Origin: an uncultured Pirellulaceae bacterium
GTDB lineage: Bacteria; Planctomycetota; Planctomycetia; Pirellulales; Pirellulaceae
DNA length: 39,173 bases
Reading direction: 5' to 3'
Assembly: GCA_964389585.1 (NCBI GenBank)
Contig: CAYMFZ010000002.1
Coordinates: forward strand, 6,111 to 45,283
Part shown: one piece after another, positions 26,453 through 38,817 of the stretch
Layout: each line of letters starts with the position of its first letter
Position numbering within the stretch: the stretch's first letter is position 1
Position numbers and translations under genes: made by a program
Notes under the pieces: generated by a model
Databases searched by the model: none
Seen by the model: only the letters and a program-made list of their open reading frames with translations
What the model was told of the DNA's origin: nothing

Positions 26453-29032
26453 CTATGGAATGGGCAAAGCGGTTTGACGCTCGCTGAATTCTTCTGCTTT
26501 GGAAAGCGCTTCCAAAGCCTCGCTCGGTCCGAACAGACCTTCCAGGAGAATCGCAGGCTCTTCTGGGTAATTCGATGGGTAAATTAGATTCACCGGGATT
26601 TGAACGCGATCAACACGGTCGAGATCCTTTGAAATTCGCTGGTCGTTGTTCGTCATGTCTGCGATGACAAGTTTGACACCTAAAGATTTTAATTTGTCTT
26701 TAACATCCTGATTCGAGAAGACACGCCCCTCGTTTATTTTGCAATTCGCTCACCAGTCTGCGGTGTAGTCGACCCAGATAATCGGCTGGCGTTTTGCCAA
26801 TGAGTACTCCACCTTTCCCGGTGCCCAAAGATCCCAGTCGCCGTGCGAGACGACTTCACCCTTTTGTTGTGCCGCATCGAAACACATGTAACCACCAAGC
26901 AAGGCCAGCAATCCTGCCAAGCCATACCCAACCAAGAATCGCTTTTTTGTGGATTTTACTTCGCTCGGACTCCACTGCCCGTAGACGTAAGCCGCCAATC
27001 CAACCACCACCAAGGCCATTAACAACCAAGACAAACCTTTGATTCCTGTTTGGGCACCGAAGGTTCGAGCAAAAAATGCAACCGTGGCAAACAAAGTAAA
27101 TGCCATGATGGCTTTAAAAGTTTCCATCCACGGCCCGGGTTTCGGGAGTTTGTAAATCAAAGAAGGAAAAAACGAGAGAACTAAGTAAGGCAACGCGATC
27201 CCCAGAGCGAAGACCGTAAACAAGACCATCGCGATTTCAGCTGGCTGAGCTAACGTATAGCCCATGTCTGCACCAAAAAACTGGCCTGAGCATGGTGTGG
27301 CAATCAAAGTTGTCAAGATTCCATCAAAGAACGACCCGGAGTAACCCTTCTTTTGAGAAGCCGAGCCGCCTACCGAAGTTAGTGACGTGCCGATTTCAAA
27401 TACGCCGGCCATATTGAGTCCCAACAAAAACAAAAGGACGATGATTCCGCAAACGAAATACGGATTGCCCATCTGTTGGCCCCAGTTAACGCTTTGGTTA
27501 AACGATAATTTCAATACCAAAATAAATCCCGCCAAGACCCACATGGAGACGACGAGTCCGGCTGTAAAGGCAATTCCATGATTGCGAATTTTCTTGGGTT
27601 CACTGCCGGCTTGCATCACAAATCCCATGACCTTGAGTCCAAGCACAGGAAAAACGCAGGGCATCAAATTCAAAAGAATGCCACCTACAAACGCACCAAA
27701 CAACGCCGTCCAAAAAGTTGTCTTTGTCGTGTTGCCATCAAGTGTGACGTAGTTGATTTTTTCGTCGCTGTTATAGTAGCCCAACATCTCAGCCAATTTT
27801 TCTGGTGTGTCGGCTAAAACAGGGTAAGAACTTTCTTTGTCGTCGTCCGCGTCATCGACTTCAGGTTCTTCGTCTTTGGGAATTTCGCCATCGGCCATCG
27901 GTTGGGCTTTGTCGGCTTTCTTTGCAACAGCATAAGAAGCCTCCTTCCATTTCACAGGAACGATCGCAGCCTTGCCGAGTGGGATGGAAGCTTCAAACGA
28001 AGCACCCGCGGGCTGGTCGCAAGTTGAATCCGAACAAGCGTGATATCCAATCGCGCCGCTGACCGAATAAGAATCATCTGATTTTGCCGTCGATGGAATC
28101 GAAACGTAAAACGACCAAGTGATTGGGTCGTGATGATAAAAGGCGGGCTTGCCAAACGCTTCACCTTCTTCAGGTTCTTCCGAGGCAACAGGACCTTTGA
28201 CATCCCAGCCGTTGGTCTCAGTGAATCCAACGATCGTCGACATGTAGTCGGTCTTTTCGAGTGAGTACGAATAGACGTGGTAGTTGTCGGTCGGAGTTGC
28301 AGTGATTTCAAGTTTCACGACGTCGCCCGGGCGAATTGGCTTGTCGATACCTGACGCACGAATCAGCCGTGCACGAACTTTGGTGTGCAATCCGTCTTGC
28401 GCGAAATCCTCAATCTTGACATCGGGCTGAACAAAATCAGCTTTAACAGTCAACGATTCATCGTATCCATCAAACTCGCCTTCGAGCTCGAATGTAAGAG
28501 GAAGGCAACTGCCGCCGGTCTCACAAGTCTGACCGTTGTAAACGACGTTGATTGTCAGGTCTTCGGGGTCGACGCCATCAGCCAATTGGATTGGGGCGGA
28601 CCAAGTGATCTCGCCTTCGAACTCTTCGCAGGGTTCATCAAACCCCTTCTCCTCAACGATGTGTGGTTTCCGATCTGGTCGGAATTTACCAATCACCTTG
28701 TACTTATCAGATTCTTCAACCGTGAACTTTGAGGGCATCGGACCCTTTGTCTTGTTCATTGAAAAGACATGCCAGTTCGGCTGGATCTCAGCAGTCACTC
28801 GCAGGATACCTTTGGTCTTGCCTTTGACGATCTTGAACGTCGACGACATTTCGACTGGATCATCCGAGGGGATATTTCCAAAGTCACCAATTTTGTCTTT
28901 GAGAAATAGATCCTGTGCTTGTGCGGGACTGGCCGACATCTGAATCGATGCTAGGAATCCGAAGAGGATCGCCAAAACAAAAATCGCTTTGGGAGAACGA
29001 GACAACAAATTTCTGTAATTCGACTTCATCAT
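26453..29032 (-). CDS. dsbD: DsbD-like thiol:disulfide interchange protein (2x DsbD-N, TM domain, thioredoxin domain); probable selenoprotein with in-frame TGA at 26750..26752 (UxxC)
   Basis: Signal peptide; N domains with CETGGSC and CSDSTC; TM Cys motifs NLMPCVFP and ATPCSG; LPKPGPWM. VDYTADW-TGA-ANCKINEGRVF continues in frame, with no further stop, into the 26453..26656 ORF and completes the Trx fold (IPVNLIYP cis-Pro motif). About 859 aa with readthrough. Confidence 0.85.
26714..26732 (-). promoter_or_regulatory. Candidate bacterial SECIS hairpin
   Basis: mRNA: UGA + 17 nt + CGAGGGG-CGUGU-CUUCUCG. 7-bp stem with two G-U pairs and a 5-nt loop with G at position 2; the loop starts 24 nt after the UGA. 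Confidence 0.55.
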
Positions 29033-29298
29033 TTTTTCCACAACAGTCGTTGTTTGGAAGGAGTTTTGGAAGTGGCTTCTCAAACTGGCTCGAATGCCAA
29101 ACAATTGAATTTCACCAATACCCAAATCGTTTAATTGATAACGACAAAAGTATATCAATTATTGAGTTTTGGCTCTATGTTCGCGCGAAGCGACTTGCCA
29201 CTGTTTCGACGCCCGGTCATTCAGTTCCTTACGGAATCGTCTAAGCAAAGTTCGAGAGTTTTGCCATAGTGGGACGTTGGAGCAGAAAAACCAGCAAT

Positions 29299-29997
29299 TT
29301 AGCGAATTAGACCACGGTTTGCCGCGTCAGACTGTGAAGCTGTTCGCTGTGGCCGAGCAGAAGTCGCGTCGGTCGCGGTTGCAGGCGGTTTTGGAGTCGG
29401 CGAAAAGAACCCTGCGAATTTGCCTTTGGATGCGACATCAGAAAGTGGCAAGCAAACGCCTTGGTCACTGCAGACTTGGCCGCTAAATGTGACCTCGGCA
29501 GTTAGTTTTTCTGGAGTGGTGCCGGGAGCGACTTCGATTGGTACGAAGAATTGAACCGTGCCTTTGTGCTTTTCAAGTCGTTGTTCAAAAATGGGATCCT
29601 TTTCGATTACCGTTGGCGGTTGATCGGGTGTGAAGGTTCCTTTGAGGCGAAATTGACGCGAGTGAGCAACATCGATCTTTGACGGACGCAGAGGTGCTGT
29701 TTGAGTCATCGAATAGATGTAGCTTCCAGCGGGCATTTCCATTCGGACAACCAAGTAGCCATGATTGCTTCCTTGTTGCAGATGAAAACGCGAGGTTAAC
29801 TTATACGGTTGAGCTGGCGATTGAACTGCTGATTGAGTTGGCTGTTCAGTTTGCGAAGCCTGGTTTTGATGATGCTCGGCCGCAGAATTTGCGTTCTTTA
29901 CAAGCGGCTGAAGAGTTTGCCCAGTTGATTCACTTGCCGACAAAGCCAATGTTATCAGCGTACATGCAGAAGCGAGCAGCAGGTTGTTTAACCGCAT
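29299..29997 (-). CDS. Secreted stand-alone DsbD N-terminal domain protein
   Basis: Signal peptide; GSYIYS...GQVCSDQGVCLP resembles the N domains of the downstream DsbD (GQTCETGGSCLP). Confidence 0.82.
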   Translation of the reverse strand: MRLNNLLLASACTLITLALSASESTGQTLQPLVKNANSAAEHHQNQASQTEQPTQSAVQSPAQPYKLTSRFHLQQGSNHGYLVVRMEMPAGSYIYSMTQTAPLRPSKIDVAHSRQFRLKGTFTPDQPPTVIEKDPIFEQRLEKHKGTVQFFVPIEVAPGTTPEKLTAEVTFSGQVCSDQGVCLPLSDVASKGKFAGFFSPTPKPPATATDATSARPQRTASQSDAANRGLIR

Positions 29998-30312
29998 TCG
30001 ATCATCCTTGATCTAAATGTTTTGAAAGCCGTCTTGTTTTTCAGCGGCTTAAGTCTGCGACATCTTTGTCGCGCCACTGCTTTGCCGAATCCTTTCGGCG
30101 GCGGAGAGTACCAAGATCAGAGAACAGCCTTCAATGGCATTTCGCCAAAGTTTGAAGCCATTTACCGCGTTTTTTCTAAGAATCGGCGGCTTGGCAAGCC
30201 AATTCCTCAAAATGCCCGTTGCGTTTGATGTTTTTTGTATAAGTCAGTACAACCAATTCATCGTTATTCGCCTCACCAAAATCCAACCGATTGAAATTTT
30301 TTCGGGCTCTCC

Positions 30313-30663
30313 ATGATCGTTTTTTTGACTTCTGATTTGATGATGTCCTCGAGTGTCAGCGCCCACGCTCGCGAGAACGACATCAAGCTCAAGACCATCG
30401 ACAATGCGAATGCAATGATCAAGTTCGTAGAAGAAAATCGTCCGCTGTTGATGCTGATTGATTTGCAAACACCCAAGCTCGACGTTGAGGAGTTTGGCCA
30501 ACAGGTTCGAAGCTTGCCCGATTCTGTTTGCCCAATCACCATCGCCTACGCTCAACACGTCAACGTTGATTTGCTGACCACTGCTAAAAACGCGGGGTTC
30601 GATCAGGTAATGACGCGTGGTCAATTTAATAGTGGCGTTGCCCAAATCGTTTCTGAAGCGTGA
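30313..30663 (+). CDS. Single-domain receiver-like (CheY fold) protein, atypical
   Basis: 116 aa alpha/beta pattern with LIDLQTP, IAYAQHV and AGFDQVMTRG; lacks the canonical acidic pair and KP. Confidence 0.72.
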   Translation: MIVFLTSDLMMSSSVSAHARENDIKLKTIDNANAMIKFVEENRPLLMLIDLQTPKLDVEEFGQQVRSLPDSVCPITIAYAQHVNVDLLTTAKNAGFDQVMTRGQFNSGVAQIVSEA

Positions 30664-35440: not shown

Positions 35441-35516
35441 GGATTCGTGGATGTAGATTTAAACTGTTGATTCTAACGCGTGCCATGCGGAATTGTGTTC
35501 ATTACAATTGGAACCG

Positions 35517-36140
35517 ATGATTCTTTCTACCTTAATTCTGTGCGTTTGGATGGTTGTCGAGTTGTTTCTCGATTTAGTCGTGCCTGATGATCTTTCCGAC
35601 TCCGCCGATCAGTCGACTTGGCAGTGGATGATTGAGCGACAACGAGTCTTTCGATCCAACACGCGCGATCGGTTCTTGCGACTGACTTGTTTGGGGGATT
35701 CACTTCAAGGCATTCGAAAACGGCTGATTCAGGCTTTTAATGTCTCAAGTGATGTCTTATTGGTTGTTGGATTGATTTGCTCACTTCCGATTCTGTTTAC
35801 TTTTGTTTCGCCGTTGGCGATCTGGTTGATCGGTGCATACACGAGGGCGGTTTTGGAAGGCGGTGTATTTGACGACGGAGGATTTGGCCCAAGAGAAGAA
35901 TTGAAGTTTCTTGAAGCTCCGTCAGAGCTAAAGCCTGAAGACGCGAGTTTCGAACCAATCACAACGTCACCCGCTCAAGCCAATTGCATTGTTTGCGGTG
36001 ACGAATTGAAGTTCGGAGTCATCTATTGTGAAGACTGCGGAACACCTCAACACTACGATTGTTGGTGTTATCTTTCGAAGTGCTCAGTCTACGGTTGCGG
36101 CTGCAAGAAGTTTCGAGTCGAGAACCCCTCTGGTAATTAA
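35517..36140 (+). CDS. Membrane protein with C-terminal prokaryotic RING finger
   Basis: TM helices plus CIVCG...CEDCGTPQHYDCWCYLSKCSVYGCGC. Confidence 0.78.
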   Translation: MILSTLILCVWMVVELFLDLVVPDDLSDSADQSTWQWMIERQRVFRSNTRDRFLRLTCLGDSLQGIRKRLIQAFNVSSDVLLVVGLICSLPILFTFVSPLAIWLIGAYTRAVLEGGVFDDGGFGPREELKFLEAPSELKPEDASFEPITTSPAQANCIVCGDELKFGVIYCEDCGTPQHYDCWCYLSKCSVYGCGCKKFRVENPSGN

Positions 36141-37863: not shown

Positions 37864-37962
37864 TTGTGAGCCGTGCCGCGTAAGCCGAACGAAGTAGCCC
37901 GTTGAAAAAAACTGCTTCCGAAATGCCCGATACCCCAAAGCCCGGTGCCTCACGGCTCACAA
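37864..37962. repeat. Divergent family-A-related element
   Basis: Terminal inverted repeat TTGTGAGCCGTG ... CACGGCTCACAA; contains the TGA stop of the adjacent gene. Confidence 0.65.
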
Positions 37963-38817
37963 CGCTCGTCGGCTGTGACAACCATACGTCGAACACTTTC
38001 CGACGTAGTTCCAGCAGTCGAGATGGTGACGAGTTTGGCAGTCCTCACAGGAAACGCTTTGCTCAACGCCAACCGACACGCCGCACACCATGCATTTGCT
38101 TTCGCGATTCTCAACGAAAACTAATTGGGTGCCTTCGATTTCAACACCGGCAAGCGAATTCAGCATCAACCGATGAATGTCGGCGAAGCTCTTGATGATC
38201 GCAAGAATTTGACGCTTGCTCAACAATCGAGTCGCTTTGCCCCCGAACTCAACTTCGCCGCCGCTGATCGTGATCGAAATTCGCCCGTGGGCATTCTTGA
38301 CGTGAGAACGGATTCGCTTGCAAATTTTGTCGTTCAAAAGCTCCTTGATTGACTTGGCGTTATTGCCATGAACTATAAACGACTCATCAAAGCGATCATT
38401 GCCGACGGTAATGTCTTCCATTTGACGAGCTTGTTTCCAATGCCTTGTTCGTCTTTGATCAGGAAAGATCCTCAAGCGAAAACCATCTTCGGGCCAATGC
38501 GTTAGCAAGCGAATTGAGTTGACGCCGTGTTGGTTTGTGACAAAAGCTCGAAAGACCGTGCCGTTTCGACGAAACGAGATGCTCGGATTGGCGGATGTAT
38601 AATCGACGTTCCCCTTCAATCGCTTGGCGACATTTTCGAGCGTCGTGTTTTGCTTTTTCCCGACCGAGACGCTGGCTCTTGAACGATGCTGTGGTTCACT
38701 TTCGACTCGTTGGTAACGCGTGCTATAACGACGCGTTGGCGCTTGAGGAAACTTTTTGCAGACTTCGACAATGATCCGAATGGCGACGAAGAGAATGAAC
38801 AGAGCGACTTGGGGCAT
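37957..38817 (-). CDS. N-terminally anchored protein with C-terminal prokaryotic RING finger
   Basis: N-terminal hydrophobic helix, EDITVGNDRFDESFIVHG segment and CMVCG...CEDCQTRHHLDCWNYVGKCSTYGC. Confidence 0.82.
   Translation of the reverse strand: MPQVALFILFVAIRIIVEVCKKFPQAPTRRYSTRYQRVESEPQHRSRASVSVGKKQNTTLENVAKRLKGNVDYTSANPSISFRRNGTVFRAFVTNQHGVNSIRLLTHWPEDGFRLRIFPDQRRTRHWKQARQMEDITVGNDRFDESFIVHGNNAKSIKELLNDKICKRIRSHVKNAHGRISITISGGEVEFGGKATRLLSKRQILAIIKSFADIHRLMLNSLAGVEIEGTQLVFVENRESKCMVCGVSVGVEQSVSCEDCQTRHHLDCWNYVGKCSTYGCHSRRAL

Follow-up and report, generated by a model that had tools for sequence, protein, structure and literature searches.

A ScsB-class DsbD-superfamily gene with a predicted selenocysteine in its gamma domain, from a Mariniblastus-like marine planctomycete

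In DsbD and ScsB proteins, electrons pass from thioredoxin to the beta domain and from there to the gamma domain, the alpha domain and periplasmic substrates, as set out in the sections of PMC3322552 drawn on here. The ScsB proteins of Caulobacter crescentus, Salmonella and Proteus mirabilis treated in those sections share an alpha-beta-gamma order, two beta cysteines and a large two-part alpha domain with conserved cysteines in its N subdomain only, and the note to Table 1 of that paper gives as their signature a Lys at +8 after the first beta Cys, which is absent in DsbD. Selenocysteine (Sec) is catalogued in the 'thiol:disulfide interchange protein' (PF13098; supplement of PMC1794560), which has UxxC in a thioredoxin fold and a DsbD-like name; by eye, the catalogue entries in that supplement are three sequences of about 190 aa, of FFNPGUIGC type, with a thioredoxin domain, a helical tail and no membrane or alpha domain. 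The GOS 'Trx-like 2' reads (supplement of PMC2398784) also carry UxxC, but they are a mixed bin of 22 read fragments, mostly of lipoprotein-like thioredoxin plus helical repeats and by eye without a DsbD membrane domain. One of the 22, JCVI_READ_100177, resembles a proteobacterial DsbD-gamma fragment with U, and this ocean-metagenome read is the sole precedent we found for Sec in a DsbD-gamma domain. TsoB (NCBIfam NF045694), a rhodanese/DsbD fusion-like selenoprotein with a DsbD-like membrane and thioredoxin region, has the motif UxxxxU with 2 Sec and is filed under rhodanese-like proteins in the part of PMC13188914 used here. Table 1 of that paper, a 2026 list of 119 families, contains DsbD only in TsoB and no ScsB or DsbD with Sec in the gamma domain, and none of the 13 planctomycete selenoprotein candidates in Table S9 of PMC4807772 is annotated as DsbD. 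In the literature we searched on DsbD, ScsB and planctomycete selenoproteins we found no description of a full-length Sec-containing DsbD or ScsB, and genes of this kind may be listed simply as thioredoxins in BSepDB or RefSeq.

The window analysed here is the whole stretch of 39,173 nucleotides from a contig of an uncultured Pirellulaceae bacterium. On the basis of sequence, domain anatomy, machinery genes, conservation and covariation, we consider it very probable that it contains one ScsB-class gene in which UGA specifies Sec in place of the first Cys of the gamma-domain CxxC. The product would likely relay electrons from thioredoxin to the envelope. The common selenoprotein motif UxxC would thus occur in a membrane electron hub that seems to be missing from the catalogues. 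The bacterial selenoproteome would gain a multi-pass membrane electron transporter, an envelope counterpart of thioredoxin reductase. The features are listed in Table 1.

Table 1. Location and description of the gene, its predicted domains and RNA element, and related genes (positions refer to the window unless contigs are named)
Feature	Position	Strand	Description
ScsB-class DsbD-superfamily gene	26453..29032	minus	859 aa with TGA761 as predicted Sec; signal peptide-alpha1-alpha2-beta-gamma
In-frame TGA, predicted Sec codon	26750..26752	minus	residue 761; supported by the column in relatives and by run contigs
Predicted signal peptide	28916..29032	minus	about aa 1-39; hydrophobic core, ends ...AQA; from sequence and hydropathy
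Alpha1 Ig-like domain	28463..28855	minus	aa 60-190; Cys170/Cys176; from Pfam DsbD_N and model
Alpha2 Ig-like domain	27938..28384	minus	aa 217-365; second pair Cys333/Cys338; all-beta in model
Beta transmembrane domain	26867..27715	minus	aa 440-722; Cys459, Cys581, Lys467; Pfam DsbD_TM
Gamma thioredoxin domain	26468..26836	minus	aa 733-855; W-U761-A-N-C764; Pfam Thioredoxin_7
SECIS-like hairpin CGAGGGG-CGUGU-CUUCUCG	26714..26732	minus	7 bp stem, 5-nt loop CGUGU, loop 24 nt past UGA
Stand-alone DsbD/ScsB-alpha gene, upstream	29299..29997	minus	232 aa, signal-peptide-like start, CSDQGVC pair; Pfam DsbD_N
13 further thioredoxin-fold TGA genes and an MsrA candidate (loci L114-L127)	G000 contigs C554, C165, C40, C82, C631, C119, C170, C154, C164, C502, C216, C311, C725, C468		

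The domain anatomy is that of a DsbD-type electron relay in which all relay cysteines are intact. Pfam matches cover residues 65-179 (DsbD_N), 441-653 (DsbD_TM) and 744-819 (Thioredoxin_7). An AlphaFold model built from an alignment of 118 sequences (pLDDT 87; the single-sequence model, at pLDDT 42, was unusable) contains two Ig-like domains, a helical membrane domain and a thioredoxin domain, and its top Foldseek matches are the ScsB N-domain (6c29) and DsbD-gamma. The number of transmembrane segments, eight in the ScsB class, comes from model and hydropathy only: the model helices are consistent with 8, and hydropathy gave fewer peaks. Among the 118 sequences C459, K467 and C581 are invariant, and Cys170 and Cys176 are each conserved in at least 90%. 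The second alpha domain shows 25% identity to the first (E 1.6e-4), and its Cys333/Cys338 pair is retained in close orthologs. DsbD-gamma domains are the best PDB sequence matches of the gamma domain, with Foldseek TM-scores of 0.70-0.79. The gamma domain also has an Ile-Pro813, which we take to be the place of the thioredoxin cis-Pro.

The sequence-only reading had called the protein DsbD-like, and this holds at the level of the superfamily but not for the E. coli type. The gamma domain does resemble that of E. coli DsbD (PDB 2FWE, 1UC7, 1VRS), whose W-C-V-A-C aligns with W-U-A-N-C, but against the NCBIfam model PRK00293 the protein scores 122 bits with a cut-off of 330, and it differs in its Lys at +8, its two tandem alpha domains and its predicted Sec. 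Three features of ScsB are found: the Lys at +8 (MPCVFPVLGLK, K467), which also occurs in 150 of the 150 top homologs; the alpha-beta-gamma order with a Cys (or Sec) pair in each; and an enlarged, two-part alpha region, modelled as two Ig-like domains, with the P. mirabilis N-domain (6c29) as its closest structural match. The protein therefore appears to belong to the ScsB class, with a ScsB-like relay function as the prediction. Its departures from the described ScsB proteins are a predicted Sec where these have the first gamma Cys, a separate Cys pair in each alpha part, and the additional stand-alone alpha gene upstream. This gene is 34% identical to alpha1, a separate upstream homolog occurs at 18 of 23 related loci, and it is likely an extra acceptor module. 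No scsC/prpX-type neighbour was found within the window.

We rejected identity with two of the catalogued selenoproteins. TsoB matches at residues 434-804, with 134.8 bits against a cut-off of 805, and no rhodanese domain was found here. The 'thiol:disulfide interchange protein' entries, at about 190 aa and by eye without a membrane domain, are a different thing from an 859-aa membrane protein.

The frame from 29032 to 26453 contains a single in-frame TGA, in the context VDYTADW-U-ANCKINEGRVFS, and runs for 98 codons past it to a TAG. The motif around the codon, VDYTADW-U-ANCK, reads as the gamma-domain CxxC with Sec first, and in the alignment with E. coli DsbD-gamma residue 761 falls on the first Cys of WCVAC. 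The 802-aa open reading frame (ORF) that ends there (26750..29158, minus) begins with a TTG upstream of the ATG at 29032, and the ATG is the likelier start because a signal-peptide-like stretch comes next. The sequence-only reading had proposed that this ORF stops at VDYTADW-TGA, in the place of the first Cys of DsbD gamma domains, that 31 stop-free codons then lie in frame with an ORF at 26453..26656, that the whole is one Sec protein of about 859 aa, and that annotation pipelines would shorten it. Translation and the E. coli alignment confirm the first point, the distance from the TGA to the ATG at 26656 is exactly 31 codons, and the third is backed by the Sec machinery, by the alternation of TGA and Cys in relatives, by a tail that evolves under purifying selection and by a SECIS-like hairpin whose stem covaries. 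It had further pointed to four observations as informative (TGA or Cys at this column in relatives, the Sec machinery genes, dN/dS past the TGA and the sequencing at 26750), and the outcome for each is given below. As for annotation, all 3 members of the protein cluster (NCBI, ENA, JGI/IMG) end at ...YTADW. Among the closest 150 representatives in a search of 1.8 billion proteins, 114 have a full CxxC, 21 end at the motif by pattern and 5 more by eye. The Sec reading would thus correct a systematic mis-annotation, in which 26 of these 150 stop at or just before the Sec position.

A more conventional explanation would be a pseudogene, in which the TGA arose by sequencing error or by a nonsense mutation of recent date. 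Chance alone puts an open tail of 98 codons behind about 4% of TGA stops; among the long ORFs of this genome, at least 98 open codons follow 27 of 752 TGA, 43 of 840 TAG and 48 of 713 TAA stops. By itself the open tail is thus within chance. The position of the TGA is beyond chance, because it aligns with the first Cys of the E. coli WCVAC and falls in the same column in relatives. The gene also has further apparent base errors, which this explanation could draw on: between 27267 and 27325, beside Cys581, there are seven base differences from two sequencing runs and the other cluster members, and the window reads QFFGAD where 2 runs and both other cluster members have the conserved PFLGAA. The window assembly thus probably has local base errors near 27267-27325 and none at the TGA, which is spanned, unchanged, by contigs from 4 of 4 seawater sequencing runs of one study. 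The TGA is moreover present in 28 of 36 genomes of the same genus, and in two phyla the stop at this column is always TGA and never TAA or TAG. That the tail is under purifying selection is shown by a dN/dS of 0.106 past the TGA, where the part upstream has 0.042; both values come from 12 unsaturated pairs, not independent of one another, among 32 sequences. We consider the error or pseudogene explanation to be refuted by this conservation and leave it next to no probability.

The genome contains what is needed to insert Sec. SelA was found with 486 bits (528 bits for the NCBIfam selA equivalog), SelB and SelD each score over cut-off, and a tRNA-Sec with anticodon TCA and a long variable arm scores 65 bits. 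SelD (G000:C636:435-1343, L010) lies inside a 749-aa open frame without TGA, probably an oxidoreductase-SelD fusion. A UGA could also be read as another residue, either Trp or Gly under an alternative code or Cys by a special tRNA. Orthologs with Cys at this column work, and the inserted residue is here predicted from sequence. Against this, UGA elsewhere in the genome is an ordinary stop: 770 of the 2,363 long ORFs end in TGA, and the genome encodes RF2 (prfB). The only UCA-anticodon tRNA found in the genome is the one that scores as tRNA-Sec, and SelA, SelB and SelD accompany a conserved SECIS-type hairpin. Insertion of a residue other than Sec is in our view extremely improbable, and decoding of TGA761 as Sec very likely.

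The hairpin spans 20-38 nt downstream of the UGA. Bacterial SECIS criteria, as given in the part of PMC13188914 used here, are a loop of 3-9 nt, a stem of 4-16 bp, a G in the first two loop positions, a distance of 16-37 nt from the UGA and an MFE of at most -7.5. The hairpin lies within all of them, in energy only marginally (-7.6 kcal/mol), and it is not more stable than shuffled sequences (z +0.51). When all 40,446 TGAs of the genome were put through a simple hairpin filter, 729 remained. More can be learned from the orthologs. Across 33 distinct orthologous sequences, 93.9% of cells are paired and 5 of the 7 pairs show two-sided change (24 cells); this was reached by 0 of 500 shuffles and slid controls were 37-65% paired, counts which overstate significance because the sequences are related and non-independent. 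More telling is the codon pattern. Among 32 sequences, Arg+9 is CGT in 30 of 30, Lys+8 AAG in 21 of 21 and Val+10 GTC in 29 of 30, and the hairpin codons show about one third of the synonymous change seen in the rest of the tail (0.107 against 0.344). Some orthologs keep the stem despite changes in the protein (RVFS to RVSL, EVSIAS). With the register fixed, 6-7 of 7 pairs form in the 35 TGA sequences of clade A, and at most 4 form in 12 of the 14 Cys sequences.

The UGA might instead be mainly a regulated stop, with a gamma-less alpha-alpha-beta product that works with a separate periplasmic thioredoxin, and a Sec form that is minor or made only when selenium is replete. RF2 competes at UGA, and many exported thioredoxin-fold proteins of this genome could stand in for the gamma domain; split ScsB forms and CcdA-type beta-only transporters do exist, as described in the sections of PMC3322552 used here. 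A product that ended at the UGA would nevertheless keep just 28 residues of the thioredoxin fold, the downstream ORF from the ATG at 26656 lacks the CxxC, and selection on both tail and hairpin implies that the full-length form matters. We therefore hold a mainly regulated stop to be very unlikely.

The taxonomic distribution of the Sec and Cys forms is uneven. In the genus (Mariniblastus-like planctomycetes), the genomes other than those with TGA comprise 5 with Cys only, 1 without the site and 2 without a match. Of the 28 TGA genomes, 24 have a selA match over cut-off; among the remaining 4, a strong tRNA-Sec was found in 2, and the last 2 are assemblies of 75-80% completeness. In other families of the order TGA was found in 3 of 24 genomes, all 3 with selA, and those of the 24 that lack selA show no TGA in their matches. 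The gene occurs in two paralog clades of about 33% identity, which differ in hairpin register. Both paralogs have TGA in 5 genomes (G005, G024, G028, G029, G032), and G036 has one TGA and one Cys copy. In a paralog subclade (L054-L056, L058-L061; TGPN-U-xTC) the conserved A-D-W before the Sec position gives way to G-P-N or G-P-A, which makes the thioredoxin active site unusual. Of 48 matches in 250 genomes drawn from across the phylum, 1 has the TGA form, and the Sec form therefore appears concentrated rather than general in the phylum. It also occurs in Verrucomicrobiota: in 81 genomes of the family of L075 (Akkermansiaceae), TGA was found in 13 of 83 matches, 13 of 13 at the same column. Four verrucomicrobial loci (G371:C48, G340:C41, G324:C9, G381:C74; L097-L099, L104) have the Sec-ScsB gene followed immediately by a separate gamma-like thioredoxin ORF of 170-202 aa with no internal stop.

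A tree of the beta region, which is unrooted and leaves out the Sec codon, the hairpin and named reference ScsB proteins, needs 8 Sec/Cys changes among 85 DNA-verified rows, and for 7 of the 8 strongly supported branches leave no alternative. Grouping all Sec forms into one clade is rejected (p-AU 6e-5, 45-row subset) and planctomycete monophyly weakly rejected (p-AU 0.033); the unrooted tree is compatible with a transfer of the window's clade from Verrucomicrobiota. Reversion of Sec to Cys is suggested by the Cys forms L025/L028/L031 and L087/L088, which branch from within groups of Sec forms, come from genomes that still have selA and retain 2-6 of 7 hairpin pairs. The natural Sec/Cys pairs of gamma domains offer a direct test of the role of selenium in a DsbD-type relay.

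The gene is not the only one of its genome with an internal TGA. Scans by hairpin alone or motif alone were too noisy, and candidates were found by profile searches, except for the MsrA candidate, which came from these scans and was then checked. In the organism's own genome 9 of 28 AhpC-TSA and 5 of 14 Thioredoxin_7 matches, this gene included, contain an internal TGA, and in all 14 it stands first in UxxC, or UxxF in one deiodinase-like case. The strict hairpin filter is passed by 7 of the 14 tested, against 1.8% of TGAs genome-wide. Catalogued families are represented over cut-off (VPGUxxT type 2, Trx7/PDZ, SelL-related), while L124 (RST-U-PPC) matched no NCBIfam family, and the MsrA candidate has GUFWG. 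The number of thioredoxin-fold TGA genes indicates that the organism places Sec in many of its redox proteins, and this speaks for the Sec reading of the gene in the window. By hydropathy about 10 of the other 13 have signal-peptide-like N-termini, and these putatively exported proteins are possible clients of ScsB. Three Molybdopterin matches, two of them at contig ends, have no internal stop and give no formate-dehydrogenase selenoprotein. We rejected as Sec a TGA in a release-factor-like match on C510, which sits at an apparent frameshift and not in a redox motif; the start of this gene (G000:C510:751-1533) is apparently in another frame, by frameshift or assembly error.

A mechanism can be proposed by analogy with DsbD and ScsB. 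SelB would bind the downstream hairpin and deliver Sec-tRNA(UCA) at the UGA. Cytoplasmic thioredoxin would reduce Cys459/Cys581 of the beta domain, which would in turn reduce U761/C764 of gamma; gamma would reduce the alpha pairs 170/176 and 333/338, and perhaps the stand-alone upstream alpha protein too, and alpha would hand electrons to periplasmic redoxins. Sec761 would occupy the nucleophilic position of gamma. Docking of gamma on alpha is a textbook pair, and in E. coli DsbD the matching Cys461 has an unusually high pKa until docked on alpha. Because a selenolate is ionised at neutral pH, Sec would be predicted to speed the gamma-to-alpha step without docking-induced activation.

Taken jointly, these observations allow a broader but tentative reading, which we hold to be possible and somewhat short of probable: a selenium-wired envelope network in Mariniblastus-like marine planctomycetes, with a ScsB hub that has no Cys back-up and about ten exported Sec-containing thioredoxin-fold clients, where ScsB gained Sec repeatedly, the Sec form was exchanged between Verrucomicrobiota and planctomycetes, and some genomes with selA returned to Cys, leaving decayed SECIS hairpins. 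The lack of a Cys back-up is suggested because the assembly, which is 79% complete, has no other DsbD_TM gene and both paralogs have TGA in the 5 relatives named above. We take the Mariniblastus-like organisms here to be aerobic, and if the network reading were true, a bacterium that presumably lives aerobically would need selenium for the redox balance of its envelope. The part of PMC13188914 used here holds that aerobes rarely keep selenoproteins and that Sec-to-Cys substitution is rare in bacteria, and the many exported UxxC proteins in this one genome bear on these views.

Two further observations concern the surroundings of the gene. A 133-aa ORF upstream (30244-30645, minus) has no Pfam or NCBIfam match and has homologs at 14 of 26 related loci. 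Elsewhere in the window, two Prok-RING_1 (prokaryotic RING finger) ORFs, at 35493-36140 (plus) and 37957-38817 (minus), flank a fasciclin-domain gene.
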